Source: a virus. Taken from it: 64,000 bases of DNA. Both the position numbers and the translations under genes were made by a program. Shown here piece by piece: positions 6,187 through 58,037 of this stretch; position 1 is the first letter of the stretch; the number at the start of each line of letters is the position of its first letter. Below the pieces are notes generated by a model. That model did not search any database. It was not told the DNA's origin and saw only the letters and a list, made by a program, of their open reading frames with translations. The stretch covers positions 96,001-160,000 of the IMG/VR virus record IMGVR_UViG_3300045972_000807. One strand, written 5' to 3'.

Positions 6187-6681
6187 ATGACTAAAGAAAT
6201 ACATGTTCCTGAGATGACCGATCCACATGAGCCCAAGATTCGTACGCTAAAAGACGGAACCCACAAATACTACGCCGGTGGCTTCTTGCACCGTGATCCC
6301 TACGAAGGCCCTGCGATAGAGAAGCCCGGGTACGGTGAGATCAGCGACTGCTATGTGCGGGGCATAATGGTAGATCAGAAATGGTACAAGAACAAACTCT
6401 ACCAGAACCTGGACGAAGTTCTGAAGGCGCAAAAAGAAGAAGAGGGCACCAAGCCTATCTTGAACGGTCACGGCGCGGCGCACAGCAACAAACCCAGCTT
6501 GGGGGTCAAGCCAGATCGCCCCAAGGTTAACTACATGCCCGACCCAGTGCAGCTTGCCAAGCCCAAGAAGCGCGACAGGTTCGATCAGTTAGCCGGTCGG
6601 GTTAGGAGTGACTCCATGCAGGACCTCCAGAAACTCTACGCCGAGCTAGCGGCACAAAATAGCGAACACCAACATGGCTAA
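6187..6681 (+). CDS. Hypothetical protein
   Basis: Strong AGGAGG RBS; one LHR.D..GPAIE-type motif near the N-terminus. Confidence 0.7.
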   Translation: MTKEIHVPEMTDPHEPKIRTLKDGTHKYYAGGFLHRDPYEGPAIEKPGYGEISDCYVRGIMVDQKWYKNKLYQNLDEVLKAQKEEEGTKPILNGHGAAHSNKPSLGVKPDRPKVNYMPDPVQLAKPKKRDRFDQLAGRVRSDSMQDLQKLYAELAAQNSEHQHG

Positions 6682-7504
6682 AGAAGAAATCTTGGTTATT
6701 GTGGACGGCACTTGGCACATCCATAGGGCCTTCCACATACGTCCCAGTTCTATCCAGTACATGGTCTTAGGCTGGGTGTGCCAGTACATCGTAGAAACAA
6801 AAGCCACGCACGTGCTTGTGGCGTTTGACTCAGGTCGGTCTTTCCGGCACGACATCCTAGACACCTATAAGGGTAACAGGCCGGTTAAGCAGCCCGGGGA
6901 AGTAGGTCCCTCTGATTATCTTTTGCCTGTATCAAGGTACTTGGAAAGCCTGGGATTTTACTGCGAGTTCGGAGAGTGCTTTGAGGCAGACGATTTGCTA
7001 CACACGGGCTCGGTTCAATGGCAACACCACACCAGGGGTAAGAGCAAGGTCATACTGGCTACGCCAGATAAAGACAACCACCAAGGTTTAAGCAAGGTTT
7101 GCCACATCCTGAAACCTGGAAGCAAAGCCAAAGGCGGTAACGTCCTGTTCACGGCGGCTGACCTGCTACGCACAACTGGGTTTACGCCTCAACAGTATCT
7201 GGATTACCAAACTCTAATTGGGGATGGCACTGACAACATTCCTAAGATCATGACCCCTGCGGTAGCAAAGGGAATTATCTTACGGTACAAGACTCTTAAG
7301 GCGTACCTGGAGAAGAATCGCATCTGGGCCAACGAAAACGCTAGGGAGTTAAACCGTAATAGGCGCCTAGTCAAGCTCTTGGATAACTGCTTCGAGTTGC
7401 AGCCCAATCTCTACAGCGTAGACCGGATAAAGAAAAACCGCCAAAACATCAAGAGTGCTTATTACAAGCAACTCTCTATTAAGGCGCCCAGGAGCCTGTT
7501 CTAA
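6674..7504 (+). CDS. 5'-3' exonuclease / flap endonuclease (PolI 5'-nuclease, T5 D15, T4 RNase H family)
   Basis: IVDG, VAFDSGRSFRH...YKGNR, EADD, TPDKD and LIGDGTDNIP motifs. Confidence 0.93.
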   Translation: MAKEEILVIVDGTWHIHRAFHIRPSSIQYMVLGWVCQYIVETKATHVLVAFDSGRSFRHDILDTYKGNRPVKQPGEVGPSDYLLPVSRYLESLGFYCEFGECFEADDLLHTGSVQWQHHTRGKSKVILATPDKDNHQGLSKVCHILKPGSKAKGGNVLFTAADLLRTTGFTPQQYLDYQTLIGDGTDNIPKIMTPAVAKGIILRYKTLKAYLEKNRIWANENARELNRNRRLVKLLDNCFELQPNLYSVDRIKKNRQNIKSAYYKQLSIKAPRSLF

Positions 7505-7506
7505 TT

Positions 7507-8049
7507 ATGTCACCAACTTCAGATGAACCAACCGACAACATAAAGCTCAGAAGAGAGCTAAACGATAAGCTACTGCTAAAGTGCTTCCCTTCTAAAGGCT
7601 TTGTGCAGTTCGAGGAAGTAAGAGGTAAGGTAGACTTTTTGAGTGAAAGGCACCTGCGCCTACGCCTGTACGAGTGCGCAGATAAAGGCTACCTTGTGCA
7701 GATAGCTAAGCGTGGCTTAGACAAAGAACACCCTTTGAAGAAGTTAAATGGCCTTTACCTTTACGAGATAACAGCACTTGGATTGGCCTACAGAGAAACA
7801 CAGACTGAGAAGCAGGTAAAACGTCGTAAGCTCAAGACCTCAAAAGTCTACAACCCTGAGACAGACGAGACGGACGACCCTTCTAAGCGAGGAACCTTCA
7901 TTGAGGAACTTAGCCCAGGAGTTAAACGGGTTACCAATATGTATATGATGGAATCCAAGACAAGAGTTCCTCGGGTTGACGCGCACGATGTCCGTGATCT
8001 TGTAAACAGCGTATTCGCCCTAGGCGAGGTAAAACACAGGAAAGCATGA
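7507..8049 (+). CDS. Putative winged-helix DNA-binding protein
   Basis: LRLRLYECADKGYLVQ...LYLYEITALGLAY matches the wHTH recognition helix plus wing pattern; basic. Confidence 0.55.
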   Translation: MSPTSDEPTDNIKLRRELNDKLLLKCFPSKGFVQFEEVRGKVDFLSERHLRLRLYECADKGYLVQIAKRGLDKEHPLKKLNGLYLYEITALGLAYRETQTEKQVKRRKLKTSKVYNPETDETDDPSKRGTFIEELSPGVKRVTNMYMMESKTRVPRVDAHDVRDLVNSVFALGEVKHRKA

Positions 8050-8072
8050 GGGAAAGACACTTGGTTGGACTA

Positions 8073-8097
8073 CCTACGCTAGGTATGCTAGCGTAGG
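8073..8097. promoter_or_regulatory. Perfect inverted repeat (hairpin A of origin-like region)
   Basis: CCTACGCTAG-gtatg-CTAGCGTAGG, 10-bp perfect stem. Confidence 0.85.
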
Positions 8098-8148
8098 CTA
8101 GAACAGGGGTAGATTGCGTTTCCTGATAACTAACCCACACGGGATAAA

Positions 8149-8178
8149 AACCCCTTAGAATAGACGTTCTAAGGGGTT
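8149..8178. promoter_or_regulatory. Perfect inverted repeat (hairpin B; terminator or origin hairpin)
   Basis: AACCCCTTAGAA-tagacg-TTCTAAGGGGTT, 12-bp perfect stem. Confidence 0.85.
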
Positions 8179-8208
8179 CTGTGCTTGTGGTTGGAAGTCA
8201 GGGCTATT

Positions 8209-8284
8209 AACATATAGCAAGTAAGCAAACATATAGCAAGTAAGCAAACATATAGCAAGTAAGCAAACATATAGCAAGTAAGCA
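8209..8284. repeat. Four perfect tandem 19-bp repeats (iteron-like)
   Basis: AACATATAGCAAGTAAGCA x4 at 8209, 8228, 8247 and 8266, with no spacers. Confidence 0.97.
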
Positions 8285-8383
8285 GTAGTGTGTACGTTAA
8301 CTGTGGCAATAGTCTGTAGTAGCAATGGCATAGTGTGTACGTGTGCTACGCCAGGTAGCGTTTCTACTGTGTTTACCCACCCG

Positions 8384-8438
8384 TGTTATGAATAACAGAA
8401 AAAAGTCCTACTATTCATAACATCTACTATTCATAACA
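8384..8438. repeat. Second repeat set: TATTCATAACA core in one inverted and two direct copies
   Basis: TGTTATGAATA at 8384-8394 (inside palindrome TGTTAT-ga-ATAACA); CTACTATTCATAACA at 8408-8422 and 8424-8438. Confidence 0.9.
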
Positions 8439-8482
8439 ATTTGAATCCGCAATGTTTTAATGAGAACTAGAAAGGGATTACG

Positions 8483-10081
8483 ATGATATACGATGATTGC
8501 AGCGCATCAGTTGAGACAGACAACACGGTACAGGTAACTACGACTGAGGTCGAGCGTGGAGTTAGACTAGATCCAAAAGAGTGGCACAAGAAAAAGGACA
8601 TGCTCCAAGAGCTGTGTGACCTAAACAAAGGTAAACTAAGCAAAGGGCCGTTCACGTTAGTTAAAAGGGAAAAGAACAGTGCCGCTAACAAGATAGTGTT
8701 CTGTTTCTTTACGCGTGACTTTGCGTCTCTTAACGTGGCACTGGTTAGGTATTCGGATGGCTCCTGTTTCCTTTGTACGCGAGGTTCGCCTACTAAAGTC
8801 CTTAGCGGGCAGAACATTGAGAGTGTAAAGGATCACGAAGCCGTTACTGAGACGCGTAAGAATCTAAAGTGTACAGCCTTTGAAGCTATGTCCGTTATAG
8901 GCTTCTACCTAGTGAATGAGTGCTGTGAGTTATCGCTGGGCAGGAGGTTCTTTACGGCGAAAGAGTGCAATAGGCTAGATAACCTGGACATTGGAATCTA
9001 TAGCCTTACGTTTGCCTCAGAGGTCCCTTTCGGAAAGACTATTGAGGAGCGCAACTTCAATCTTAACCTACTAGGCGAGCTTGTTACTAGCACCGTTAAG
9101 ATGCACGGTACGTCTTTCAGCCTATTAGACTACCTGAAGGTTACAGGCAAATCCTGGAACATAATAACTGAGGAGATCGCCGAACAAGTTAACGAGAGCG
9201 GCGAACAGTCGCTAGAGTCTTCTATCATTAGGGGTCCCAATACAGGGGTGTTACTGAAGAAGGTTCGAAGCAATGGTTTGCTGTTGGTTAAGCAGATGTA
9301 TTACCTCAAGGAAGAGCAAGCTGTTGCTATGGGCCCCAGCGGCCTAAAGAACTTGGAAGTAATTAAGGGTATGTCAGCCCAGGCTAGGTCAGAGAAGTCT
9401 TTGAAGATTCGCGTAGACAATACCTTCGGCAAAGAGTACATTCGAGAGTGGTTGGGTGTCCTTAATGCCAAGGACAGTAGCGAAGACATAACGATACGGG
9501 ATGCTAATCCCTTGTGCGATTCTTTAGAGTACCTTACCAGTATGGCCCTCTGTGCTACAAACGATTTAGGGTTAAGGACCCTAATGCTTGGCCCTACGAT
9601 AGCTGACATACGACAGATAGAAGCTAACGAGGACGGGTTCCTTAATTATGCTGAATTGGACATCCTTGGCAGGTGGCTACTTGAACCGACGGGCGTTAAA
9701 GAGGTGGGCAAGAAAGGCTTGAAGCTGGACTGGGTAAACATAACCGCTTCTGATATGGCAGCATGGAGGCTAAATCAAAAGCTAATGATGCGTAACTACC
9801 TTGACCTGCGCCTACCTTTTGGGTTCTATCAGTCGCTTAATGTGGCTAGAGCAGATCACTTTATCCAAGGTAAAGGCAGGCAGGCACTAGACGCTGCCCG
9901 TAACCGAGACACGGGCAAAGGATCTTTCTCAGAAGAACTTGAGATGCACTCAATTGAGAGCATACAGAAAGCCCGAGCCCTCATATCTCGCATACGTGGT
10001 TCGGTTTACCTCCCTGTGCCTAGATCAAAAGAGTCTTTTGTGGCAGAGATAGCCAACCACCCGATCTCTAAAAACCTATAG
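8483..10081 (+). CDS. Divergent phage/plasmid replication initiator, gene II/X (Rep_trans-fold) family
   Basis: RGSPTKVLSGQNI (aa ~100-112) resembles the GSPAK..QGHN motif. FTAKE...IGIYSLTF, KQMYYLKEE (Tyr274) and KIRVDNTF follow in the expected order. Lies behind iterons and hairpins. Confidence 0.65.
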   Translation: MIYDDCSASVETDNTVQVTTTEVERGVRLDPKEWHKKKDMLQELCDLNKGKLSKGPFTLVKREKNSAANKIVFCFFTRDFASLNVALVRYSDGSCFLCTRGSPTKVLSGQNIESVKDHEAVTETRKNLKCTAFEAMSVIGFYLVNECCELSLGRRFFTAKECNRLDNLDIGIYSLTFASEVPFGKTIEERNFNLNLLGELVTSTVKMHGTSFSLLDYLKVTGKSWNIITEEIAEQVNESGEQSLESSIIRGPNTGVLLKKVRSNGLLLVKQMYYLKEEQAVAMGPSGLKNLEVIKGMSAQARSEKSLKIRVDNTFGKEYIREWLGVLNAKDSSEDITIRDANPLCDSLEYLTSMALCATNDLGLRTLMLGPTIADIRQIEANEDGFLNYAELDILGRWLLEPTGVKEVGKKGLKLDWVNITASDMAAWRLNQKLMMRNYLDLRLPFGFYQSLNVARADHFIQGKGRQALDAARNRDTGKGSFSEELEMHSIESIQKARALISRIRGSVYLPVPRSKESFVAEIANHPISKNL

Positions 10082-11522: not shown

Positions 11523-12150
11523 TCCTAAACTGGCTTACGTCATCGACGGTAAGACTGTCTACCTTACAGATAATATTACAGGTTCCGATGTGGGTTTCAT
11601 AGGCCCAAACGGAAGCAGTAACAGCACGTTGACCCTCGGCCTTGTCTCCCGAGATAAGATAGAGCCCTTAGTGCCCCCAAAGGTAATCCCAGAACCACCC
11701 CTTACGCTTGACCAGCAGGTAGCCCGTGCCCAGTCTATTGTAAGGGTTATTATCGAGGCGCAGTACGAGTGGGATAAAATCCAGATTGCCAAAGGCTTTG
11801 CCGAGGCCCGCAACAAGCTGTTACGCATTCCCTTATACCGGGATGCCCTGTGGGAAGCACCTCGTTTTAGGGGTAACCTTAAGAGTCTCTTGGACGAAAT
11901 ACGCTCTCCGGTATCCTCAGCTAGGGGAGCTACGATAAGTGCCGTTGTGGGTGGTACCGGCGGAGGCGGTGGTGGTGCCGCACAAAAGCTACCAATGGGC
12001 CAACTTCCCACAAAGTACATGCGCCGAAGTGCGACACAAGCGGAGAGGCCTGAGCTTACACCTACTCAAGTTTGGGAACTGTCAGTGGACAATCCTAACT
12101 CTTCGGTATCAAAATTCCTCAGAGTGTTCGGTAAACATCATGGCACTTGA
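11515..12150 (+). CDS. Hypothetical protein
   Basis: Operonic ORF overlapping both neighbours by a few bases. Confidence 0.65.
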   Translation: MNNPKLAYVIDGKTVYLTDNITGSDVGFIGPNGSSNSTLTLGLVSRDKIEPLVPPKVIPEPPLTLDQQVARAQSIVRVIIEAQYEWDKIQIAKGFAEARNKLLRIPLYRDALWEAPRFRGNLKSLLDEIRSPVSSARGATISAVVGGTGGGGGGAAQKLPMGQLPTKYMRRSATQAERPELTPTQVWELSVDNPNSSVSKFLRVFGKHHGT

Positions 12151-13831
12151 TCTAGATGACGTAGTACCTCCGGTTAACAAGGCAAAGAAGAAACCGGAGG
12201 GAGTCTCATTTAACTTTGATTTGCCTGCAGCACCAACAGCAGCTTCTATAATCGCAGGTACCAATACGCAAGGTCTGCCCAAGATCATTCAGGCTCTCTA
12301 CTCAGGCACATCTGTAAACCCCTTGCCCAAGAAGCTTACCGAGGATGCTTGGGCTGACCTAATAGACGCCTTTAGTCACCCTAAGGAAAACCTTAGTGTC
12401 ATTCAGAAAGTTCTGAGTGCTAACCTTACCAAGGGTCAAAGAGCCGCGTTTAACTACATGGCTGACTTTGTGCTGGACAGAAGCCCCAACAGGTTCTTTA
12501 GTCTTCAAGGTTACGCGGGTACAGGTAAGAGCTACATCGTACGCAGGTTAGTTATGTTCTGCGACTTGGTAGGCGTTGAATGGCTATTGACTGCCCCGAC
12601 CAATAAAGCCACAAAAGTCCTAACCTCGTCTATTCCTGGGATAGATAAAGGCAAGTGCAAGACGATCTACTCAGCACTCAAGCTGACAATGAGCACGGAC
12701 GAGGATCAACAGGTCCTCGTAGACATGGCTCAGGACAACTACTCCTCTCTGGACATTCGCAGCGGTTCACTGCTGTGTATTGACGAGGCCAGCATGCTTA
12801 ACGGCATGGTAACCCAGAAGGTTAAGCAGTGTGCACAAGACTTGAACCTACGCGTTCTTTTGATTGGTGACCCCGACCAGTTGAGGCCTGTCGGCGAGGC
12901 TAGAAGTTCAGCGTGGGACCTCTCAATTGTCGAGACACGCATCGACAATGCCCAACAGAACCTTGTTAGGCACGTTAAGCTCCTTGAGGTTAAGCGTTTT
13001 GAGAACGAGCTACTAGACTTAAGCGTCCGTATTCGTGCTTGTATCCGGAAAGGCAAACTTCCTCCAGGTGGGCCATCTGACTTGTTCCTGCATGTACCTG
13101 AAGAGGTCGAGGTATTCAAAGACAAAGCCACATTTGAGGCGCACATCCTACAATTGAAGACCCCTGAGGACTTCAAGGACGTTAAGGTAATTGCTTGGCG
13201 AAACCGAACGGTAGAACACTACAACGATATAATCCGTAAGAACATTGGGTTCAACGATGAGTATAACGTGGGTGACCTTCTTATGCTTGCCCAGCCTAAG
13301 CTCCAGAAGGTTAACTACCGAAGGAGCGTAATCATTGCCAACATCGACGAAGAGGTTGTGGTGCAGGTAGTGGCACAAAAGAGCATGAAGCCTCAGTCCA
13401 TGTTCTTCCCCAACCTGCCTATGATCGACTATTGGGAACTGACTACACAGACAACGGACTTTCAAGACAAGCCTACCCAGATAGTTGTCAACATGCCTCT
13501 ATTGGAAGATCATGGCCTTGAAGATGCTTTACAGCAAATGGCTACAGCGGCCAAGCGGGTTAAGCAGCAGAGCTTCAGCGACAAGGCCAACTCAAGGCGC
13601 TTAAGGGAAGAAGCGTCTCAACGGTGGAAAGAGTATTGGTCTCTCCGTGAGGAGTTTACGCTAGTACGGTTCGCCTATGCTTTCACGGCGCACAGGGCGC
13701 AAGGTAGCAGTATCAACAAGGTTTACGTTGACGTTAGAGACATCTTGGCTAACCCTGACCCAGACGAAAAGTTGGAATGCCTTTACGTTGCGGATACCCG
13801 GGCAAGAACCACTATGAGGGTGCTGATATGA
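12140..13831 (+). CDS. dda: SF1B DNA helicase, Dda/RecD-like
   Basis: GYAGTGKS Walker A, TAPTNKA, IDEASM, IGDPDQLRPV, IAWRNRTV, YAFTAHRAQGS, YVADTRA. Start re-assigned to ATG 12140 (MALDLDD). Confidence 0.92.
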   Translation: MALDLDDVVPPVNKAKKKPEGVSFNFDLPAAPTAASIIAGTNTQGLPKIIQALYSGTSVNPLPKKLTEDAWADLIDAFSHPKENLSVIQKVLSANLTKGQRAAFNYMADFVLDRSPNRFFSLQGYAGTGKSYIVRRLVMFCDLVGVEWLLTAPTNKATKVLTSSIPGIDKGKCKTIYSALKLTMSTDEDQQVLVDMAQDNYSSLDIRSGSLLCIDEASMLNGMVTQKVKQCAQDLNLRVLLIGDPDQLRPVGEARSSAWDLSIVETRIDNAQQNLVRHVKLLEVKRFENELLDLSVRIRACIRKGKLPPGGPSDLFLHVPEEVEVFKDKATFEAHILQLKTPEDFKDVKVIAWRNRTVEHYNDIIRKNIGFNDEYNVGDLLMLAQPKLQKVNYRRSVIIANIDEEVVVQVVAQKSMKPQSMFFPNLPMIDYWELTTQTTDFQDKPTQIVVNMPLLEDHGLEDALQQMATAAKRVKQQSFSDKANSRRLREEASQRWKEYWSLREEFTLVRFAYAFTAHRAQGSSINKVYVDVRDILANPDPDEKLECLYVADTRARTTMRVLI

Positions 13832-22300: not shown

Positions 22301-22882
22301 ATGCGAAGCCATAAACGACTTATGATGGACGCGGCGAAGATTCGCCCCATTCAGAAAAGGCTCCTAGAGCATTCAGACAACGGCTGGGTGTTTGAAGCTG
22401 TTAGCGACTCTAAGGGTTTTGCAACTTACAAGAACCGCGAGGTTGCCTACGCCTTGTGGGTAGACGATAACTTAGAGGTCCATGTCCTTGTTAACGGCAA
22501 GGACCTGGGCGTTGTCACAAGCCGCAGCACAGTGTCGCACCTTATCTGGTGCTACATGAAGGACACTCAAATGTCTAAAAATGTGCCTAAGGTCATACGC
22601 GGAAAAGACTATGGGCTGTGCCCCAAGCTCAAGACGATGGTCCTGAAACGCTTGCATCACGATCTCTGCGAGGTGCGTTTTGTAAAGGCCGATGACACTA
22701 TACGGATTATGCTTTGCACGCTGTTGCCCACGTTTATGCCTGACGAAGACTACGACGGCATCAGCTATGAGACAATGAAGAAGCGTGAAAACAACCCATA
22801 CCTTGTTACGGTGTGGGACGTGGAAAAGATGGCGTTCCGTTCCTTCACGCTGGAACGCTTTTTGAGACTGACGGTTATTTAA
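22301..22882 (+). CDS. Protein with C-terminal DUF2693/WYL_2-like SH3-fold domain
   Basis: EVRFVKADDTIRIMLCTL...VTVWDVEKMAFRSF signature. Confidence 0.75.
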   Translation: MRSHKRLMMDAAKIRPIQKRLLEHSDNGWVFEAVSDSKGFATYKNREVAYALWVDDNLEVHVLVNGKDLGVVTSRSTVSHLIWCYMKDTQMSKNVPKVIRGKDYGLCPKLKTMVLKRLHHDLCEVRFVKADDTIRIMLCTLLPTFMPDEDYDGISYETMKKRENNPYLVTVWDVEKMAFRSFTLERFLRLTVI

Positions 22883-22896
22883 CGAAAGGAAAACTT

Positions 22897-23190
22897 ATGG
22901 AAGAAATTCCCTTTAAAGAGGTTACAGTTACCCTGCAACTCAAGCAATGGGTTCTGTTGCTGAATCAGCTTGAGAGCGCTACAACGCTTAGAAAGCTGAC
23001 ATTGGACACTAGCAACCTGGCATCCAGGTCTCCAGAGGACTTGGAAGACTTAGCTGCTGAGGTCAAGTGTCTAGCTGACATTAGCTACTGCCTTGTCCTG
23101 ATAGATCAGCAAGGCGACCTAGGTAAATCCAGACGTCAATATCTGGAAGAAGCGTTTCCTGGAATCAACAAACTCACTAACGGAGAATAG
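22897..23190 (+). CDS. Hypothetical protein
   Basis: AAGGA RBS before ATG 22897 (MEEIPF). Confidence 0.65.
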   Translation: MEEIPFKEVTVTLQLKQWVLLLNQLESATTLRKLTLDTSNLASRSPEDLEDLAAEVKCLADISYCLVLIDQQGDLGKSRRQYLEEAFPGINKLTNGE

Positions 23191-23191
23191 C

Positions 23192-23341
23192 ATGAAAATT
23201 AAGATATACGACGTTACCGTTTCCTACGGTTCTTGGGTTCACAAGTACCCCATGTGCGCCTGCAGCAGTTGTGGCGCCATTATCAAAGCAATGGACTTTT
23301 ATGGAGAGCATGTGCGGATTAGCGCAAAGCCCCGTAAGTAA
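23192..23341 (+). CDS. Small hypothetical protein (49 aa, not in ORF track)
   Basis: GGAG RBS; MKIKIYDVTVSYGSWVHKYPMCACSSCGAIIKAMDFYGEHVRISAKPRK. Confidence 0.65.
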   Translation: MKIKIYDVTVSYGSWVHKYPMCACSSCGAIIKAMDFYGEHVRISAKPRK

Positions 23342-23350
23342 GCACCAGCG

Positions 23351-23392
23351 AAAAGCCCGCGTAGCACAAGATGCTACGCGGGCTTTTTTTTT
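23351..23392. terminator. Bidirectional terminator between convergent early and late blocks
   Basis: AAAAGCCCGCGTAGCA-caaga-TGCTACGCGGGCTTTTTTTTT. Confidence 0.92.
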
Positions 23393-23405
23393 GCTTCAGC
23401 GTTTA

Positions 23406-27080: not shown

Positions 27081-29045
27081 TTACCATTGAAGCTGTACGA
27101 ATCCAGCTCCACCATACCCGTTAGGGTCATCTCGGCGTTCGTCACCAGCACCGCCACCGCCACCTCCAAGTGTACCTGGGTATCCGTCATGCGGCTGGTA
27201 AGGAGAGCCTACCCCTCCTTGACCACCTGCACCGTACGACGCGCCACCGCCGCCACCACCACCCGAGTAGTATCCAGAAGCACCTCCCGGACCGCCCAGT
27301 GCGTATCTAGTATTGCTTCCAGCATGACCTGGGCCACAGCCGTAGTCGTTACCGCCACCACCCGCGGCACCTGCAGTAAGTATAGGTAACAACAGTCCTA
27401 AGCTAGACACTATACCACCTCCGGCTCCGCCGGCTGTATTTCCTTGCGCGCCACCGCCACCGCCGCCCAGGTACACGTCAACAGTTCCATACCCGTTAGT
27501 AATGCGAGTAGCACCACCCGCACCACCCGCACCACCGTTGCTGCCAGATGGACATCCACCGCCACCTCCACCAACAACTATAGTAAGAGTATCACCGGGG
27601 ACAACCTTAAATCCACCCGAAGCTACTGCACCGCCACCGCCACCGCCTCCTCCCCAACCAGAGCACGAAGTGTCGCAACAGTTTCCAGCACCACCCCCTC
27701 CGCCCCCACCGGAGGCAAGCAGAACTACGTTACGCATTTCTACAGGAACAGTTATGTAGTAGGTACCCGGAGTGTTTTGGTACCAGTATCCGCTAAGCTG
27801 TGTGCTGATCGTGTAGTCACCAGTTCTAGGGACTACAAGCACACCGTAAGGGTCAATTGTGAGGCATGCTCTGCCTTGGTACCTGAATACAAGGTTGGCC
27901 CCTTCCTGAGTAACTGTCCAGTCTACGGTTCCTAGTGTCTTTAATGCTTGCTGAACCGCAGTAACTGCGGCTTGAGCAGCAGCAATCTGATTAGTTACCT
28001 GCAAGTTCATGTCAGCCAGCGCTCTGTTCATATCGAACTTGGCCTGAGCCAACTGCTGATTGATTAAAGCCTCTTCATCGGTTAAGCTTTGATTCAAAAG
28101 ATTCATCTCGTCAGCCAACGTCTGCGTCAACAAACTAATAGCCGAATTTAGCGCGTCTGTTTGCGCCTTATCTTTTTGTTCTATGACTGTCTCAAGGAAC
28201 ACATAGTCTGACAATGTGGTCTCACGAGCTAGCAACATCACCGTGGCACCTGCCGCCAAGCCTGTTATGGGGTACGTAAGGTTAGCCACACCTGGGCTGC
28301 CTGAAGCTATAACGCGAACGTTACCCAGCATATCCTGCATCAGGAAGTCACCTGGTAAGAACGCCGCGTCCATAAGATTAAACGCTGGGCCGTTAAGGGT
28401 AACGCCGTCATTTTCTACAGAAGCCAAGATTCCAGAGTCAACTTGAAGGTAGTTGGCTACGTTCCACTGCATTCCGTTAGACGCGGTAAGGAACAAGCTG
28501 TTGTTACCGTTAACCGCTTCCATAACGATAAGGGCGTCAGGCTGGCCTGGGAGAAATCGCTGACCAGTTACGTTGTTGGTTGAGCCCACAACCTCAATTA
28601 CGCCGGGTGTTCCCGTGATAACCTGAATAACCGAAGGCGACATTCCGATGTTCAGAACACAATGAAAGGTAAGGGCGTTAGCAACACCCGAGGCAGCACT
28701 CGCCTTTGTCTGGAGTGCTCCGAAAGCTGCCAAGGCGAATAGTGTGCCGTCGCTGAGGTACAGTGCTATCTCACCAAACGTAAACGGGCCAGCGGTAGCC
28801 GGGACAATACAGACAATGTCCCTAGTTATTTCGCTAAGCATGTTCCAGCTTGAAGGAGCATCCGAGTATACCTCAGTGCCGTGAATGATCGTGTCATTCA
28901 ACCCCGGAGTATAGTTGTACCCAGTACCCAAGGTGAACCTAGTAATGGATATAGATAAGCCTTGACCTTGTGCCAGCATGGCTGCGTTGAGGCCAGCCTG
29001 CGTTATCGTAAACGCTGACGGTGCTATTGTGCTTGATGTAGCCAT
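27081..29045 (-). CDS. Tail fibre protein with coiled coil and C-terminal glycine-rich domain
   Basis: N-terminal ITQAGL...GPFTFGEIALY...LFA anchor; PGTYYITVP...GGGGG...GGAGFVQLQW. Confidence 0.85.
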   Translation of the reverse strand: MATSSTIAPSAFTITQAGLNAAMLAQGQGLSISITRFTLGTGYNYTPGLNDTIIHGTEVYSDAPSSWNMLSEITRDIVCIVPATAGPFTFGEIALYLSDGTLFALAAFGALQTKASAASGVANALTFHCVLNIGMSPSVIQVITGTPGVIEVVGSTNNVTGQRFLPGQPDALIVMEAVNGNNSLFLTASNGMQWNVANYLQVDSGILASVENDGVTLNGPAFNLMDAAFLPGDFLMQDMLGNVRVIASGSPGVANLTYPITGLAAGATVMLLARETTLSDYVFLETVIEQKDKAQTDALNSAISLLTQTLADEMNLLNQSLTDEEALINQQLAQAKFDMNRALADMNLQVTNQIAAAQAAVTAVQQALKTLGTVDWTVTQEGANLVFRYQGRACLTIDPYGVLVVPRTGDYTISTQLSGYWYQNTPGTYYITVPVEMRNVVLLASGGGGGGGAGNCCDTSCSGWGGGGGGGGAVASGGFKVVPGDTLTIVVGGGGGGCPSGSNGGAGGAGGATRITNGYGTVDVYLGGGGGGAQGNTAGGAGGGIVSSLGLLLPILTAGAAGGGGNDYGCGPGHAGSNTRYALGGPGGASGYYSGGGGGGGASYGAGGQGGVGSPYQPHDGYPGTLGGGGGGAGDERRDDPNGYGGAGFVQLQW

Positions 29046-44582: not shown

Positions 44583-44812
44583 TCAAAACTCCAAGGGTAA
44601 AGCGTTAAGTCTAATGCACCTAGCGTAGGTCAGACAGGTGCTAAAATGGCAGATGTGGATAACGGTGCACAAGAGCCAAAATGGGCGTTCTCGGTGGGAT
44701 AATTAGGTTTTTGGATTGAGTGCTCCACAGAACGTAGAAACACCTATTACCTAGGAACGCCGCCGAATTGGACGCTTGGTAAATGTGGGCGCCGATGACC
44801 GGCGAGGCGCCC

Positions 44813-46943: not shown

Positions 46944-48185
46944 TCATACGGTTTCGTCAAACCTTTCGGGGAACTTCTGATGTAAAATTGTTTCAAGCTT
47001 TTTGTACGTAGGACTTTTTACGACTCTAACGGTTTCTTTGTCGTGTATTGCTAGCATGAACCTAATACCGTTAGCTCTACATACCTTATTGGCTGCGTCA
47101 AACTTTGGCTTGTTACGCTTGTACTCGTTCTCCCGAAAGAACAAACCGTCGTACTGCTTAGCCTCAACCATGTACCCTTCACCACCCCAGACAATAAAAG
47201 CGTCTGGCTGATACAGAGACTGCTTGCCTTTTAAGGGGTTAATGTAGAACACTTCGGGCATATCTCCAAAGTCAGTAGAAACTACAATAGCACCAGCATC
47301 TTCTAGCGCGCTAAGAACTTGGGGCTCGCATCCTCGGCATTCATGCACATTACCGAACTGGTCTGTCCATTCCTTAGCGTTCCGCTGAGAGTGCGTTACC
47401 TTTTTGGCTATTTCCGGGTTATGCATCTGATGCGCGTAACCTGTGCGCTCTAGCATGCTAGCTTCACGGCGAGCTTGAACCTCACGTAGTAGGCACGCGT
47501 GTTTAACCCCGTGTCTTCGCATAGAATTTTCTATTTTCTTTGCGGTCATTCCTGGGATACAGCTTGGGTTTACAACTCCTTTACCGTACCGCGACTCTAG
47601 CGCAGCTATTTGTCTTTGCTGGACCTCTAAGCTACACGACGGACTGTTTCCACCGTATCTTATATTATTCGTACGCTTGAATTTTTCTAAAACGTTTTTG
47701 TTCTGCAGGGCGTGGTCTACTCCGCACCGCCTACGCATAGTTTTTATAATCTTATTCTTTACCTCGGGAAGCTGCATGGAGCATTTAACTCCATAGTTTT
47801 CCTGAAAGTAAGCTAAGCGTTTGCTGGCTTGTTCTTTGTAAAAACCTGACTCAGTGTGACCAACTTTACAGCACTCGTTGCTGCAAAACTTTAAAGGACC
47901 TTCAGTGAACCATAAGCAGGGTTTACCGCAAACGTCACACTTATTCTCCCGCATAAAGCGTATTGTACGCTCTATTATTGACACGGGAGTACTGGGGCAA
48001 AGAACTTGAAGCTGGTCTAAGAGCTTTGGGAATTTCTTGCTTAGTCGAACGAACCGTCCGTTACCTCTAGCTTGGCACTTGTCATCTAAACATGCTTTCC
48101 GCAAGGAAGCAAATAGCGTAGGCTTAACTGACTCAAGGCGACGGAGTGTTTTGTATATTTCAGAATTGGGTTGACGGCTGGCCAT
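46944..48185 (-). CDS. Free-standing PD-(D/E)XK endonuclease with Zn finger and YGV repeats (homing-endonuclease-like)
   Basis: CDVCG...FCSNEC; ~5 (R)YGV...P.V repeats; YQPDAF...MVEAK; likely start ATG 48185. Confidence 0.8.
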   Translation of the reverse strand: MASRQPNSEIYKTLRRLESVKPTLFASLRKACLDDKCQARGNGRFVRLSKKFPKLLDQLQVLCPSTPVSIIERTIRFMRENKCDVCGKPCLWFTEGPLKFCSNECCKVGHTESGFYKEQASKRLAYFQENYGVKCSMQLPEVKNKIIKTMRRRCGVDHALQNKNVLEKFKRTNNIRYGGNSPSCSLEVQQRQIAALESRYGKGVVNPSCIPGMTAKKIENSMRRHGVKHACLLREVQARREASMLERTGYAHQMHNPEIAKKVTHSQRNAKEWTDQFGNVHECRGCEPQVLSALEDAGAIVVSTDFGDMPEVFYINPLKGKQSLYQPDAFIVWGGEGYMVEAKQYDGLFFRENEYKRNKPKFDAANKVCRANGIRFMLAIHDKETVRVVKSPTYKKLETILHQKFPERFDETV

Positions 48186-48211
48186 GATGTTCCACAGGTA
48201 GTTATGAAATC

Positions 48212-48280
48212 CTGTAAGGTCTCGGCTATCTTGACTACCCAAGAGCGCGGTTAATTACTCCGCTTCACCGAGACCAACAG
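48212..48280 (-). ncRNA. Candidate structured cis-regulatory RNA (three-way junction) upstream of the endonuclease gene
   Basis: GGUCUCGG/CCGAGACC closing stem enclosing GCGG/CCGC and UCUUG/CAAGA hairpins. Confidence 0.45.
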
Positions 48281-48289
48281 AAACTAGAA

Positions 48290-50245
48290 TTAAGCTGACA
48301 TGCTTGCAATCGTATTTTCCGATATGGTCAAACCTTGCTTGCTAATGCCCAGGGTGAGGGCAATAACGCGCGTAGCCAGGATAGGTGTAATCAGAATCGT
48401 GATAGCCAAAATGCCGCTGTTAGCCAGCACATCCGGGTTGTTGGTCTTGTCACAGATGACCTTGAAGGAACTGATGCCGCGACCGGATTGAACGCCACCG
48501 AGGTAGCTATTCAGGCCAGTGGTCAGTTGCATCTTCAGGATGTCATCCAGAGGTTCTTGCAGACCGTACAGCAGGTAAGCGTAAGAGGCGCGCTTGATGA
48601 TGTTGCACAGGAAGCGAACGTTCAGGAACTGGAGTGCGCTGCTCTGTGAAGCCAAGGTAGCCTGTTCCCACAAGGCAATGCCTTGACCCGGGAACTTCCG
48701 CATGTAGTTAACCTGCGCCTGATACAGAGGACTGAAGTCGCCGTCTTCGTAGGTGTAGCGAACATCCAGAACCTGCGACAGCAGACCGCGGTTCAAGCCT
48801 GCGAAGGAGTACCAAGGCTGACCGACGTTGGTCGTATTGGCATACAGACCAGCCATCATGCCCGACGGAGGAACAAACAACAGCTTGCCGCTGGTGGGAT
48901 CAGACTCCAGCAAATCAGGAGTGAACAGCGCGGAGTACGAGCTATTCAGGTTCAGCGTGATGTTGCGATAGTCAATCGAGTCGGGACGAGATTGCTGACC
49001 GCTAGGCACGTCGAGGAACGCCACGCATTCAGCACGTTGCTGTGCGATAGCATCCATGTGATCCTGGATGATCGGAGTAGCGCGACCTGCGTTAATCATC
49101 GTGTCGATCACATACAGCTGCTTATTGCTAAACACGCTCCATGCTTTGTTGATCGTAGCCGCAGTAGGCGCTGAGCCTGAAGTGCCGCCGGTCATAACGA
49201 CGCTAGCCTGTACTGAGTTCAACACAGGGTACGTGCTGAGATGAGCCAGGTTCGACATAACCCGAATGTATTGGCTATACGGGTTGATGCGCTGAGTGGT
49301 TTCGCTTTGTGTGCCCAGATCGTCAGTGAAGTCGTTGAGGGTACAGGTAAACACTTCCACAGGAGTAGAGTTGCTGAGGCTCAGCTTGTAGACGCTCAGG
49401 GTGAAGCCTGTGCTGATTGTCAGCTGGGCTGTGCTGATAATCGGGCCGAGTGCTTGATTGGGCACATTCAGTCCGTCATCGACCCAGGTATTGGAAGCCG
49501 TACCCACTTGGGCCAAAAGGCCCATGTTCTGGATAGCTTGTGTGCGACCGTATATCTTGTAACCGATGGAACCTGCAACAGGCGCCCAGGTAATGGTCAC
49601 GCTTGACTGCGTAGGCGATGCGGAGATGATAACCGTAGCTGGAGTTGACACCAACGACTCAGCACCGCTGCTATTGATACTCGACACCGCGTAGGTGTAA
49701 GTACCGGAACCCATCGAACCGCCGGACGTAGTGCCTGTGGAGATGATGGTGTCGGGAGTGGCTGGGTTCTGTGCTTGAACGCTAACCGCGTAGTCGCCGT
49801 TAGCGTAGCTACCAGGACCGTCAGCGGGATAGAACACGTAGACGGGAGTCTCACCGGAGCCCACGTAGTTCACCCAGTTGGGGTATTGCAGTTCGGTAAG
49901 GGACAGGCCGCCTGGGATAGAGCGCAAGGCGGTCATGCCGTTCACGTCTTGCAGCATAACCATTGCAGCGTACTTGGCATCGTTCTCCACGCAACGGTTA
50001 GCCCAGAGAGCTTGGCCGAACTTGAAGTAATCGAGGCCCATGTACTGGTCAAAGGAAACCGCAGCGTTCGGATTGCCGTAGGCGTCCAAATAGCTTTGTG
50101 CGTCAGTCCACAAACGGGGGCCCAAAGGACCTTTGCCGGACACAACAACCTGTGATGCAACAGCATTGGCAACTTGTGTCAATGTCTGCGACAGGTTAAC
50201 TTCTTTGATATAGACGTCAGACGCCTTGGATGCGAGATTGCTCAT
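48290..50245 (-). CDS. Tail sheath protein with FN3-like insert
   Basis: DVYIKEVNLS, GKGPL, FLDVP, SSYSALFTP, PPSG...PWYSFAGLNRG, LNVRFL, VICDKTNN. Confidence 0.95.
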   Translation of the reverse strand: MSNLASKASDVYIKEVNLSQTLTQVANAVASQVVVSGKGPLGPRLWTDAQSYLDAYGNPNAAVSFDQYMGLDYFKFGQALWANRCVENDAKYAAMVMLQDVNGMTALRSIPGGLSLTELQYPNWVNYVGSGETPVYVFYPADGPGSYANGDYAVSVQAQNPATPDTIISTGTTSGGSMGSGTYTYAVSSINSSGAESLVSTPATVIISASPTQSSVTITWAPVAGSIGYKIYGRTQAIQNMGLLAQVGTASNTWVDDGLNVPNQALGPIISTAQLTISTGFTLSVYKLSLSNSTPVEVFTCTLNDFTDDLGTQSETTQRINPYSQYIRVMSNLAHLSTYPVLNSVQASVVMTGGTSGSAPTAATINKAWSVFSNKQLYVIDTMINAGRATPIIQDHMDAIAQQRAECVAFLDVPSGQQSRPDSIDYRNITLNLNSSYSALFTPDLLESDPTSGKLLFVPPSGMMAGLYANTTNVGQPWYSFAGLNRGLLSQVLDVRYTYEDGDFSPLYQAQVNYMRKFPGQGIALWEQATLASQSSALQFLNVRFLCNIIKRASYAYLLYGLQEPLDDILKMQLTTGLNSYLGGVQSGRGISSFKVICDKTNNPDVLANSGILAITILITPILATRVIALTLGISKQGLTISENTIASMSA

Positions 50246-57770: not shown

Positions 57771-58037
57771 ATGGCACGCTTTACAAAAGCTGAGCTGGGC
57801 AGAATCAAACCCGGCACATGGGTAACAGTTATGTGGAAAGATACCGACATGGCCCAGGCTATCCTCTTGCTCGAAAGGATCAACGTTAAAGAGCATGGTG
57901 ACATTACGCTAAAGTATTTTGATCCAGCGCATAACTGCATTAAAACCTTGGCAGTGCATAAACAGATCGTAGGGGTAGGCGATCGTGTTACGGTCCCTGA
58001 AGCACAAGTTCAATCCAATTGTGAAGGAGACACCTAA
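57771..58037 (+). CDS. Early hypothetical protein (paralog of 20243-20557)
   Basis: AGGAG RBS; TKAELGRIKPGTWVTVMWKD...LLLER...GDIT. Confidence 0.75.
   Translation: MARFTKAELGRIKPGTWVTVMWKDTDMAQAILLLERINVKEHGDITLKYFDPAHNCIKTLAVHKQIVGVGDRVTVPEAQVQSNCEGDT

Follow-up and report, generated by a model that had tools for sequence, protein, structure and literature searches.

The locus described here belongs to an uncultured giant tailed phage, known from a 171.8-kb IMG/VR myovirus record that carries a provirus flag and is 65% complete; the window, that is, the whole stretch of DNA that was analysed, comprises 64,000 nucleotides of this record (positions 96,001 to 160,000). Within the window, a repeat-rich gap of 433 bp (8050-8482) is situated directly 5′ of a plus-strand gene (8483..10081) for a 532-aa initiator-like protein, a predicted nickase of the gpII/Rep_trans superfamily, hereafter rep. 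On its 5′ side the gap adjoins the gene for a 180-aa probable winged-helix protein (7507..8049, plus strand), which follows a gene for a 5′-3′ exonuclease or flap endonuclease (FEN; 6674..7504, plus strand; Pfam 5_3_exonuc_N, 1.5e-18; phrog_107) in a common rightward block. A gene for a Dda-like SF1 helicase (11939..13831, plus strand; Pfam AAA_30/PIF1/UvrD_C_2; phrog_325, 3e-78) lies 1.9 kb 3′ of rep, and its product is a candidate partner helicase for the initiator. Genes for replication proteins (FEN, the Dda-like helicase and an NAD ligase) are thus found on both sides of the spacer. Inside the spacer, a small-ORF check detected only low-complexity read-through of the repeats and no credible gene, searches with Rfam and for tRNAs (ARAGORN) gave no match, and promoter and terminator scans found nothing, including no sigma-70-like promoter. 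The original prediction had described the spacer as the longest non-coding stretch in the window, which is not secure, as a crude ORF map shows a gap of 523 bp at 22883-23405; a 125-aa GTG ORF (22813-23190) may occupy part of that gap. GC skew, which had been suggested as a check for an origin, was calculated along with AT skew, and neither shows an inflection at the spacer.

The spacer is the densest repeat cluster of the window, and every repeat element originally listed for it was recovered at its coordinates. Hairpin 1 (8073-8097, plus strand), which begins 24 nt past the stop codon of the upstream gene, has a perfect stem of 10 bp and a 5-nt loop, GTATG; hairpin 2 (8149-8178), 51 bp further on, has a perfect stem of 12 bp and a 6-nt loop. 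When folded as single-stranded DNA they reach -11.6 and -11.5 kcal/mol, respectively (z = -5.5 and -5.7), and none of 200 shuffled sequences folds as well. Both are 305-410 nt upstream of the rep start, where the terminators of the upstream operon would be placed. Hairpin 2 is preceded by a run of five A residues on the plus strand, so that on the minus strand its stem is followed by TTTTTAT, and it looks like a leftward or bidirectional terminator, the orientation being read from the sequence by eye. Neither hairpin is listed by the terminator scan, in the case of hairpin 2 because two of the T residues pair within the stem; hairpin 1 has no T run. Perfect hairpins with a stem of at least 8 bp number 48 in the whole genome, compared with 14-19 in shuffled sequences. 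Some 15 of the 48 lie in intergenic DNA and have stems of 9-24 bp; a second tandem pair, at G000 27227 and 27273, is among these. Hairpins are therefore not specific to this spacer.

An array of four 19-bp direct repeats, AACATATAGCAAGTAAGCA (8209-8284, plus strand), starts 31 bp past hairpin 2 and 112 bp past hairpin 1. The copies are abutting, 100% identical and ~67-70% A+T, and they give the top TRF score in the window (152). The array is made up of exactly 4.0 perfect copies, its edges are sharp, and it has no degenerate copies alongside; the 19-mer is unique in the 171.8-kb record, even when two mismatches are allowed. A spacing of 19 bp puts the repeats out of helical phase. The array is a candidate "bind" locus for the initiator or, alternatively, a young tandem duplication. 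Two copies of TAGTGTGTACGT (8286-8297 and 8331-8342, plus strand), 45 bp apart, are unique in the genome at up to one mismatch, and a small hairpin with the arms GCTAC and GTAGC (8345-8359) is the only such element that is within chance (z = -1.7; 13 of 200 shuffles). Closer to rep, CTACTATTCATAACA is present in two direct copies (8408 and 8424) and one inverted copy (8384-8394). Three operator-like sites of 14 bp lie in the same stretch, namely TGTTATGAATAACA (8384-8397), with palindromic arms of 6 bp, and two copies of TACTATTCATAACA (8409-8422 and 8425-8438), which is nearly the reverse complement of TGTTATGAATAACA; the inverted pair folds with z = -3.5. The sites lie where the spacer is richest in A+T (70-77%, 8390-8470), directly 5′ of the ribosome-binding site of rep. 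The earlier idea that gene-proximal repeats serve Rep autoregulation holds to the extent that these palindrome-like sites are, to judge from their sequence, plausible operators.

Hairpin 1 is part of a dispersed element of ~65 nt, of which alignment and nhmmer detected three copies only. The copy in the spacer (W1, 8072..8136, plus strand) consists of hairpin 1, a conserved 3′ flank, CTAGAACAGG(T)GGTAGAT, and a downstream GATAAC. The second copy (W2, G000 49893-49830, minus strand) is 91% identical to W1 over 45 nt, and its hairpin, located 12 nt past a stop codon on the coding strand, has the same stem with the loop GTACA instead of GTATG. Such a difference between the two hairpin-forming copies would be unexpected if the nick lay in the loop. 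In the third copy (W3, 44604..44668, plus strand) the 5′ arm of the hairpin is missing, and the genes on either side are on the minus strand, antisense to it; the element is thus more than just a terminator. These other two copies are in late-gene regions, one in the gap between a papain-like peptidase gene and a spanin-like gene and the other in the gap between two tail-region genes. A DnaA box within the element (a perfect box in W3 and an 8/9 box in W2) was considered and rejected, as such boxes occur at chance frequency genome-wide. A periodicity of 54 kb was also looked for, and no general pattern emerged.

What kind of protein is encoded next to this spacer? The 532-aa protein itself has no direct match in Pfam, PHROG or the PDB, and on its own it fell short of the Pfam models Rep_trans and Phage_CRI. 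On five kinds of evidence, drawn from sequence comparison and structure modelling, it is a distant relative of the gpII (Phage_CRI)/Rep_trans tyrosine nickases. The AF2 model (pLDDT 76, pTM 0.74) was compared by VIA-align with 48,161 PDB representatives, and two Rep_trans initiators came out on top: 4cij_A (Z 7.3, rmsd 6.0, 217 of 267 residues aligned) and 4cwc_A (Z 6.8, rmsd 6.9, 221 aligned), that is, RepSTK1 of pSTK1 and RepDE of pC221, the closest solved structures. Foldseek returned the same two from the PDB (probability 0.5-0.9) and, from BFVD, an Inoviridae "Replication-associated protein G2P" (E 4.5e-5), and the structure neighbours in the ESM Atlas include Phage_CRI clusters with a TM of 0.60-0.65 by row over 273-309 residues. 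Since the Z values are middling, weight is placed on the agreement among the four structure searches. The catalytic part is predicted to have a crescent-shaped, TBP-like β-sheet fold.

Profile and motif searches point the same way. Pfam PF05144 (Phage_CRI) was matched by 6 of the 36 family members (best E 1.3e-4), and hhalign against a seven-sequence gpII alignment gave a probability of 9% and a P of 0.0037, which is weak on its own. The family profile aligned to M13 gpII at SPxKxLxGxN and YLKxxE (Y197-L-K-H-V-E in M13). Key residues of the phage protein are D4, S102-P103-x-K105-x-L107-x-G109-Q110-N111, Y274-L-K276-x-x-E279 and R310-x-D312; over 36 sequences, Y274 and R310 are invariant, while K276, E279, D312 and D4 are conserved in at least 90%. 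The conserved residues fit the Rep_trans motifs N′ (D), III (YxKxxE) and IV (xRxE) (PMC5714925), with Asp for Glu in motif IV; motif I (RxD) had no confident placement in the 532-aa protein. In the model, Y274 is at the end of a β-strand that is followed by a helix, and the same strand-then-helix arrangement is seen at the catalytic tyrosine of RepD (PMC4797284). A catalytic tyrosine on a β-strand, together with carboxylate metal ligands, is also what the protein has in common with the initiators of pT181 and pC221. Structure, profile and motif searches thus bear out the earlier claim of a Rep gene next to the spacer, one of gpII/Rep_trans type. The identity with gpII-type proteins is only ~10-12% in profile and structure alignments, and the phage protein is 120 residues longer. 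Its C-terminal helical region is possibly a DNA-binding domain; a comparison of the family profile with IRF DNA-binding domains gave E 0.03 in this C-terminal domain, a lead only. The family comprises ~41 clusters at 50% identity, and a search for longer or fused forms of the initiator found none, which is weak evidence.

The 180-aa protein on the other side has no match in Pfam or PHROG, including no initiator family, and its AF2 model is unusable (pLDDT 44). Its structure neighbours in the ESM Atlas are all (10 of 10) from winged helix-turn-helix (wHTH) families (MarR/HTH_24/HxlR/PadR), covering residues ~8-120 with a TM of 0.62-0.71 by row in most rows, and the N-terminal ~120 residues are probably those of a winged-helix DNA-binding protein, as far as predicted structures tell. 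Of its three homologues, which have 54-75% identity, P0051 is encoded on a contig of 50,666 bp, the source and size of which match the contig of the Rep homologue P0005, and the 180-aa protein appears to go together with rep in one or more relatives.

In searches for relatives of the locus, no match was found among GenBank phages at the DNA or the protein level, in GTDB genomes, or in IMG/VR with the Rep protein, its alignments, two of its homologues, the homologue from L003, the Dda helicase, the wHTH alignment or the 19-mer as the query. Seven closer Rep homologues have 31-51% identity, one of them on a 50.7-kb contig. In L003, the only relative that could be retrieved, a homologue of 25% identity is encoded directly 3′ of a repeat-bearing non-coding region of 730 bp. 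The original prediction had held that absence of the repeats from relatives that keep Rep would count against it, and in L003, a single and very distant relative, the 19-mer array is missing. The flank of hairpin 1, CTAGAACAGGTGG, resembles the nick region of M13 and the motif TAGAATAGGTGG, two copies of which are upstream of the L003 homologue; this resemblance was not accepted as evidence of a shared nick site, as blastn-short of the element against L003 gave E ~3, with equally good matches inside genes.

Initiators of the gpII/Rep_trans type are known from filamentous phages, small plasmids and conjugative elements, and in this superfamily the nick site is usually within a few hundred base pairs of rep. 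The architecture here has parallels in several of these systems. Besides the initiator superfamily with its SPxKxLxGxN and YLKxxE motifs, the Ff phages (M13/f1) share with the present locus a non-coding origin region directly 5′ of the initiator gene, a pair of hairpins, and an AT-rich stretch that separates these from the gene. A covarying origin hairpin is found 225-560 nt 5′ of gene II in M13, Dulem virus 52, Pseudomonas phage 97-1 and Dulem virus 62, and in three of these four inoviruses a second hairpin directly follows it. However, M13 is an ssDNA phage of 6.4 kb, whereas the present myovirus has a dsDNA genome of 172 kb or more; the hairpins of M13 are adjacent, whereas these are 51 bp apart; M13 has no tandem array, whereas four 19-bp repeats are present here; and the conserved nick loop, CTTTAATA, is absent. 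The nick-loop consensus CTYTAATA, derived from the four inoviruses, is also absent from the spacer, with no match at up to one mismatch in a hairpin loop. This weakens membership and leaves the mechanism untouched, because a protein so divergent would be expected to have a different nick sequence.

For the combination of hairpin and direct repeats, the pMV158 family provides the closer parallel, in which a nick hairpin is accompanied by two or three tandem direct repeats of 5-21 bp at a distance of up to 100 bp (PMC1851628). In pMV158 itself, the nic hairpin IR-I is followed 84 bp downstream by the bind locus, in which 11-bp direct repeats stand three in tandem; the spacer similarly has a hairpin, a gap of tens of base pairs (31 bp after hairpin 2) and abutting direct repeats. 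The original prediction of a hybrid between a theta and a rolling-circle origin is therefore unneeded, as rolling-circle origins of this family already pair a nick hairpin with tandem direct repeats. On the other hand, RepB of pMV158 is an HUH protein (Rep_2) with a fold unrelated to gpII/Rep_trans (PMC5714925), and a search of the 532-aa protein against HUH families gave no match. pMV158 is also a plasmid replicon of a few kilobases, and repeat binding by the phage protein is putative, by analogy with it. The pT181/pC221 origin, served by RepC/RepD, consists of the nick hairpin ICRII and the binding palindrome ICRIII; unlike the array here, the bind site of pT181 is an inverted repeat that directly adjoins the nick hairpin, its centre being 23 bp away from the nick. 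Origins of the pT181 type lie inside rep, which means that the nick site could lie elsewhere than in the spacer. RepD recruits the SF1 helicase PcrA, and here a gene for a Dda-like SF1 helicase is nearby. The spacer is a real feature and, by analogy with these systems, plausibly a variant on the known layout of rolling-circle origins, and we tentatively read it, at what we judge to be slightly less than an even chance, as the origin and regulatory cis region of the adjacent gpII/Rep_trans-type initiator.

The strongest competitor, a real possibility even though we think the balance is against it, is that the spacer only controls transcription: the hairpins would be terminators or RNA 3′-end hairpins, the AT-rich tract would be the promoter and operator of rep, the 19-mers would be a functionless young duplication, and the nick site would be elsewhere. 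The abundance of comparable intergenic hairpins in the genome, a tandem pair among them, fits this well, as do the positions of hairpin 1 and of the W2 copy 12-24 nt past a stop codon on the coding strand, the T5 run after hairpin 2 on the minus strand, and the absence of the nick consensus. A perfect, sharp-edged array that is unique in the genome and missing in L003 is likewise what a young duplication, such as a recent product of slippage, would leave. It is less easily reconciled with a spacer that has no sigma-70-like promoter and in which the scan called neither hairpin a terminator, hairpin 1 having no U tract, or with the W3 copy, without a hairpin and antisense to its neighbours. Moreover, 433 bp with five repeat sets exceeds the usual need of a terminator plus a promoter, and the initiators of this superfamily mostly have their target in cis, near their own gene. 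If transcription control were the only role, the operator might be bound by the winged-helix protein, and the nick might be inside rep, as in pT181, or at the W elements.

An iteron-type theta origin is improbable. The 180-aa winged-helix protein would bind the 19-bp repeats as iterons and melt the AT-rich tract, and the gpII-like protein would have a different role, for example in a later switch to sigma replication; this corresponds to the hybrid of the original prediction. The layout resembles that of lambda ori, P1 oriR and pSC101 in that several direct repeats of about 19 bp, a typical iteron length, have an initiator gene and an AT-rich tract (70-77% A+T, ~100 bp away) close by; with four 19-bp copies, the array is within the usual range of such origins, three or more direct repeats of 17-22 bp. 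The upstream protein resembles a winged helix, and its apparent linkage to rep in at least one relative would also suit this role. What is not found is a spacing of two helical turns, a cognate winged-helix Rep or a DnaA box in the spacer. The repeats of iteron theta origins are spaced ~21-22 bp apart, whereas these are identical and abut at 19 bp, out of helical phase, and the adjacent initiator is of the nickase type. DnaA boxes are at chance in the genome (2 perfect boxes against 1.3 expected, and 40 against 36.7 at one mismatch), the box being a host-dependent, and here weak, test. The 180-aa protein matches no initiator family, with an unreliable AF2 model, and a dimeric wHTH protein would be better suited to the palindromic 14-mers than to direct repeats. 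Very improbable is a leftward non-coding RNA, a counter-transcript or primer comparable to the antisense RNAs by which repC of pT181 is controlled; this RNA would start in the rep-proximal AT-rich tract, pass through the 19-mers and end at hairpin 2, where the minus-strand stem followed by UUUUUAU is the best terminator-like signal of the spacer; the best leftward promoter has at most 8 of 12 matches, the predicted RNA is not unusually structured beyond the terminator (z = -1.3), and Rfam has no match.

How would the spacer work as the origin and regulatory region of rep? We infer nicking, binding, the choice of hairpin and any role in replication along the following lines. The spacer would act as a double-strand origin of the rolling-circle type, in which one extrudable hairpin, or its conserved 3′ flank, offers the nick site, and the four 19-bp repeats may be a high-affinity bind locus for the C-terminal domain of the initiator or for the upstream winged-helix protein. 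After the phage DNA has been circularised and supercoiled, the initiator would be positioned on the repeats, and Tyr274 would cleave one strand and remain attached to its 5′ end. The 3′-OH would then serve as the primer for the leading strand while the Dda-like SF1 helicase unwinds the template, and the product would be sigma-type concatemers destined for packaging. The spacer would most likely have two further functions: transcription of the upstream operon would stop here, and the AT-rich tract, with its three 14-bp palindrome-like sites, would contain the rep promoter and operator. In its widest form, the proposal is that in a clade of uncultured giant myoviruses a gpII/Rep_trans nickase and an origin of hairpin and tandem repeats start replication, with the three hairpin-1 elements as possible nick sites; this we regard as doubtful.

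To our knowledge, little is understood of how replication begins in giant phages, and in large tailed phages no origin has yet been assigned to an initiator of this kind; a full-text literature search found no paper linking Rep_trans or Phage_CRI to jumbo phages or Caudovirales. Should the spacer contain only terminators and a promoter, the initiator-like gene and the three-copy dispersed element would remain useful results. If the origin reading is true, the locus would provide a defined pair of initiator and origin that is testable by simple in vitro nicking, and if the 532-aa family does nick the adjacent spacer, this rolling-circle superfamily would extend from elements of a few kilobases to genomes of ~200 kb.

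The non-coding spacer at 8050-8482 is bounded on the left by the stop codon of a gene for a 180-aa protein (7507-8049, +) and on the right by the start of rep, a gene for a 532-aa initiator-like protein (8483-10081, +). All the repeats of the original prediction were found at their predicted coordinates: hairpin 1 (8073-8097; 10-bp stem, 5-nt loop), hairpin 2 (8149-8178; 12-bp stem, 6-nt loop), four identical, abutting 19-mers (8209-8284), TAGTGTGTACGT at 8286 and 8331, and CTACTATTCATAACA as direct copies at 8408 and 8424 and an inverted copy at 8384. Hairpins 1 and 2 fold far better than shuffled sequences (z = -5.5 and -5.7, respectively); the folding of a small GCTAC hairpin in the spacer is not far above shuffles (z = -1.7). 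Of the tandem repeats in the window, the 19-mer array scores highest, and it is confined to this single locus in the whole record. The tract proximal to rep is 70-77% A+T and includes three palindrome-like 14-bp sites that could plausibly act as operators. Two copies of TACGATGAT, spaced 10 bp apart, span the rep start codon (8479-8497), so that two ATGs stand there in different frames. The spacer had also been called the longest non-coding stretch in the window; searches returned no credible ORF, Rfam family or tRNA in it, and its rank as the longest gap is uncertain.

What kind of protein does rep encode? Its product has no direct sequence match in Pfam, PHROG or PDB, and its family is small: at 50% identity, 1.84 billion proteins yield 41 representatives, almost all of them about 500 aa long. 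Since several separate lines of evidence agree, it very probably belongs to the gpII (Phage_CRI)/Rep_trans superfamily of tyrosine nickases. The AlphaFold model is fair (pLDDT 76, pTM 0.74), and its best PDB matches by an aligner independent of Foldseek are two solved Rep_trans initiators, 4cij_A (Z 7.3, 217 of 267 residues aligned) and 4cwc_A (Z 6.8), both of which are also returned by Foldseek. Among predicted viral structures the model matches an Inoviridae 'Replication-associated protein G2P' (E 4.5e-5), and Phage_CRI clusters are among the nearest structures to the ESM Atlas's own model. Pfam Phage_CRI is matched by six of 36 family members (best E 1.3e-4), and M13 gpII aligns to the family profile over the SPxKxLxGxN and YLKxxE blocks, the tyrosine of the latter being M13 Y197, through which gpII becomes linked to DNA. 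Taken alone, the profile-profile alignment to gpII is weak (probability 9%). With an HMM of the gpII family built from seven inoviruses, both blocks are collinear in nearly all 36 members, every single match being weak. Across the 36-sequence family alignment no substitution is seen at Y274 or R310, and conservation at K276, E279, D312 and D4 reaches at least 90%; Y274/K276/E279 correspond to Rep_trans motif III (YxKxxE), R310/D312 to motif IV (xRxE) and D4 to motif N' (Asp) (PMC5714925). The model places Y274 at the end of a beta-strand followed by a helix, the same arrangement as that of the catalytic tyrosine of RepD (PMC4797284). The C-terminal third may be a DNA-recognition domain, since the family profile matches nine interferon-regulatory-factor (IRF) DNA-binding domains in PDB over about residues 365-455 at borderline significance (E 0.03-0.4), the alignment covering the conserved Trp and LD(L/I)xxPxxxY residues; a phage initiator may thus carry an IRF-like winged-helix domain. 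The best predicted viral structural match of the model, BFVD A0A7S5V094 (468 aa; E 1.6e-12, TM 0.48-0.54), is likely to be a further family member, encoded by a deposited virus genome.

The spacer can be compared with the origins of known initiators. In M13 the origin hairpin, and in Dulem virus 52, Pseudomonas phage 97-1 and Dulem virus 62 its counterpart, precedes gene II by 225-560 nt; covarying stems enclose a common loop, CTYTAATA, and three of the four have a second hairpin immediately afterwards. The three counterparts, at L006 ~662-706, L007 ~689-730 and L008 ~523-555 in inovirus records of the two lemur-saliva Dulem viruses and of phage 97-1, are unannotated and lie 380-560 nt upstream of gene II. 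The spacer hairpins are about as far from rep (305-410 nt), but unlike those of M13-type origins they are 51 bp apart, and the CTYTAATA loop was not found in them. Rolling-circle origins of the pMV158 family are documented to pair a hairpin with tandem direct repeats: pMV158 itself carries three 11-bp repeats, 84 bp away from the nick, and in the family the repeats measure 5-21 bp and lie at distances of up to 100 bp (PMC1851628). The 'hybrid theta/rolling-circle' origin originally proposed is therefore unnecessary. The binding site of pT181-type plasmids is an adjacent palindrome.

We tentatively favor the spacer as the cis region of the initiator, in which a rolling-circle-type origin would share the DNA with the transcription stop of the upstream operon and with the promoter and operator of rep. 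The initiator would nick at or beside one of the two hairpins and bind the 19-mers. The repeats, the hairpins and the family of the protein are what the analysis shows; nicking, binding and a role in replication are inferred. So far, the argument for an origin is one of architecture and adjacency.

The origin reading is tempered because perfect hairpins are found genome-wide, hairpin 1 is part of a three-copy element and hairpin 2 resembles a terminator. In the whole 171,756-bp record (G000, own numbering), 48 perfect hairpins with stems of at least 8 bp were counted (examples at G000 1220-1273, 27227-27300, 57876-57907, 116053-116091, 119351-119387 and 147680-147709), whereas shuffles have 14-19. 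Some 15 of them lie between genes; the stems of these measure 9-24 bp, and another tandem pair is among them. Bidirectional terminators of the classic A-run/T-run type account for some of the hairpins, and many others lack a T run. Hairpin 1 belongs to an intergenic element of about 65 nt, present in exactly three copies in the record and not specific to the rep locus: W1 in the spacer (8072-8136, +), W2 between papain-like peptidase and spanin-like genes (G000 49830-49893, or ~1484-1547 of stretch L002, -) and W3, antisense to its neighbor genes (44604-44668, +). The element is made up of CTAGCGTAGG, CTAGAACAGG(T)GGTAGAT and GATAAC, in that order; the 3' arm and the latter two motifs are conserved and the loop is not. 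The 5' arm is present in two of the three copies, giving a 10-12-bp hairpin; W3, which lacks it, forms none. Since its orientation relative to local transcription varies, the element is unlikely to be a mere terminator. Hairpin 2, with a T run on the minus strand, resembles a leftward or bidirectional terminator.

The main rival reading, which is less probable, is that the spacer holds terminators and a promoter/operator only; the 19-mers would then be young and without function, and nicking would take place elsewhere. The array, exactly four perfect copies with no degenerate neighbors, fits either strong constraint or recent slippage. The one relative compared, L003, a locus of a 176-kb metagenome contig, encodes a rep homologue (25% identical), which opens a rightward block immediately beyond leftward tail-fibre genes; upstream of it are about 730 bp of non-coding DNA that carry dispersed repeats, and the tandem array is absent there. 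Other searches for relatives, among them of GenBank phages, IMG/VR and GTDB genomes, gave no second locus for comparison. An L003 motif resembling the hairpin-1 flank was within chance by unbiased search.

The 180-aa protein encoded upstream of the spacer has no family match in profile searches and no usable AlphaFold model, and all ten of its ESM Atlas structure neighbors are winged-helix regulators. One of its homologues and one Rep homologue are probably on the same 50.7-kb contig, and closer relatives may thus have kept the two genes together. A theta origin served by this winged-helix-like protein is improbable, and a regulatory or primer RNA transcribed leftward as far as hairpin 2 is very improbable. 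The four readings of the spacer partly overlap.

The window covers bases 96001-160000 of the source record, which (IMG/VR; provirus flag, 65% complete by CheckV) encodes the sheath, baseplate and fibre of a contractile-tail phage; the Rep-like protein is entered in the protein database as from a 229,765-bp contig. The spacer lies 2 kb inside a rightward block that begins back to back with leftward tail-fibre genes and encodes a flap endonuclease, a HAD-family protein and a Dda-like SF1 helicase, with an NAD-dependent ligase further on. A homing-endonuclease-like gene (46944-48242, -; phrog_3339, 1.4e-15) adjoins the tail-sheath gene (48290-50245). An identical 18-mer, TACAATGAAGGCGTAGGG, is intergenic at G000 152096 (window 56096) and 170051 (past the window end), one copy being 46 nt upstream of a gene start, and GCGTAGG is about fivefold enriched in intergenic DNA (10 of 44 copies in 4.3% of the genome); such sequences may serve the phage as a promoter or start-site motif.

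A rolling-circle origin beside its Rep gene is a system of known kind. The literature search found no report of gpII-like initiators with such a layout in large phages, and the family appears confined to large uncultured phages. What is new is the setting, a gpII-like initiator family of large uncultured phages together with a pMV158-like hairpin-plus-repeat layout.
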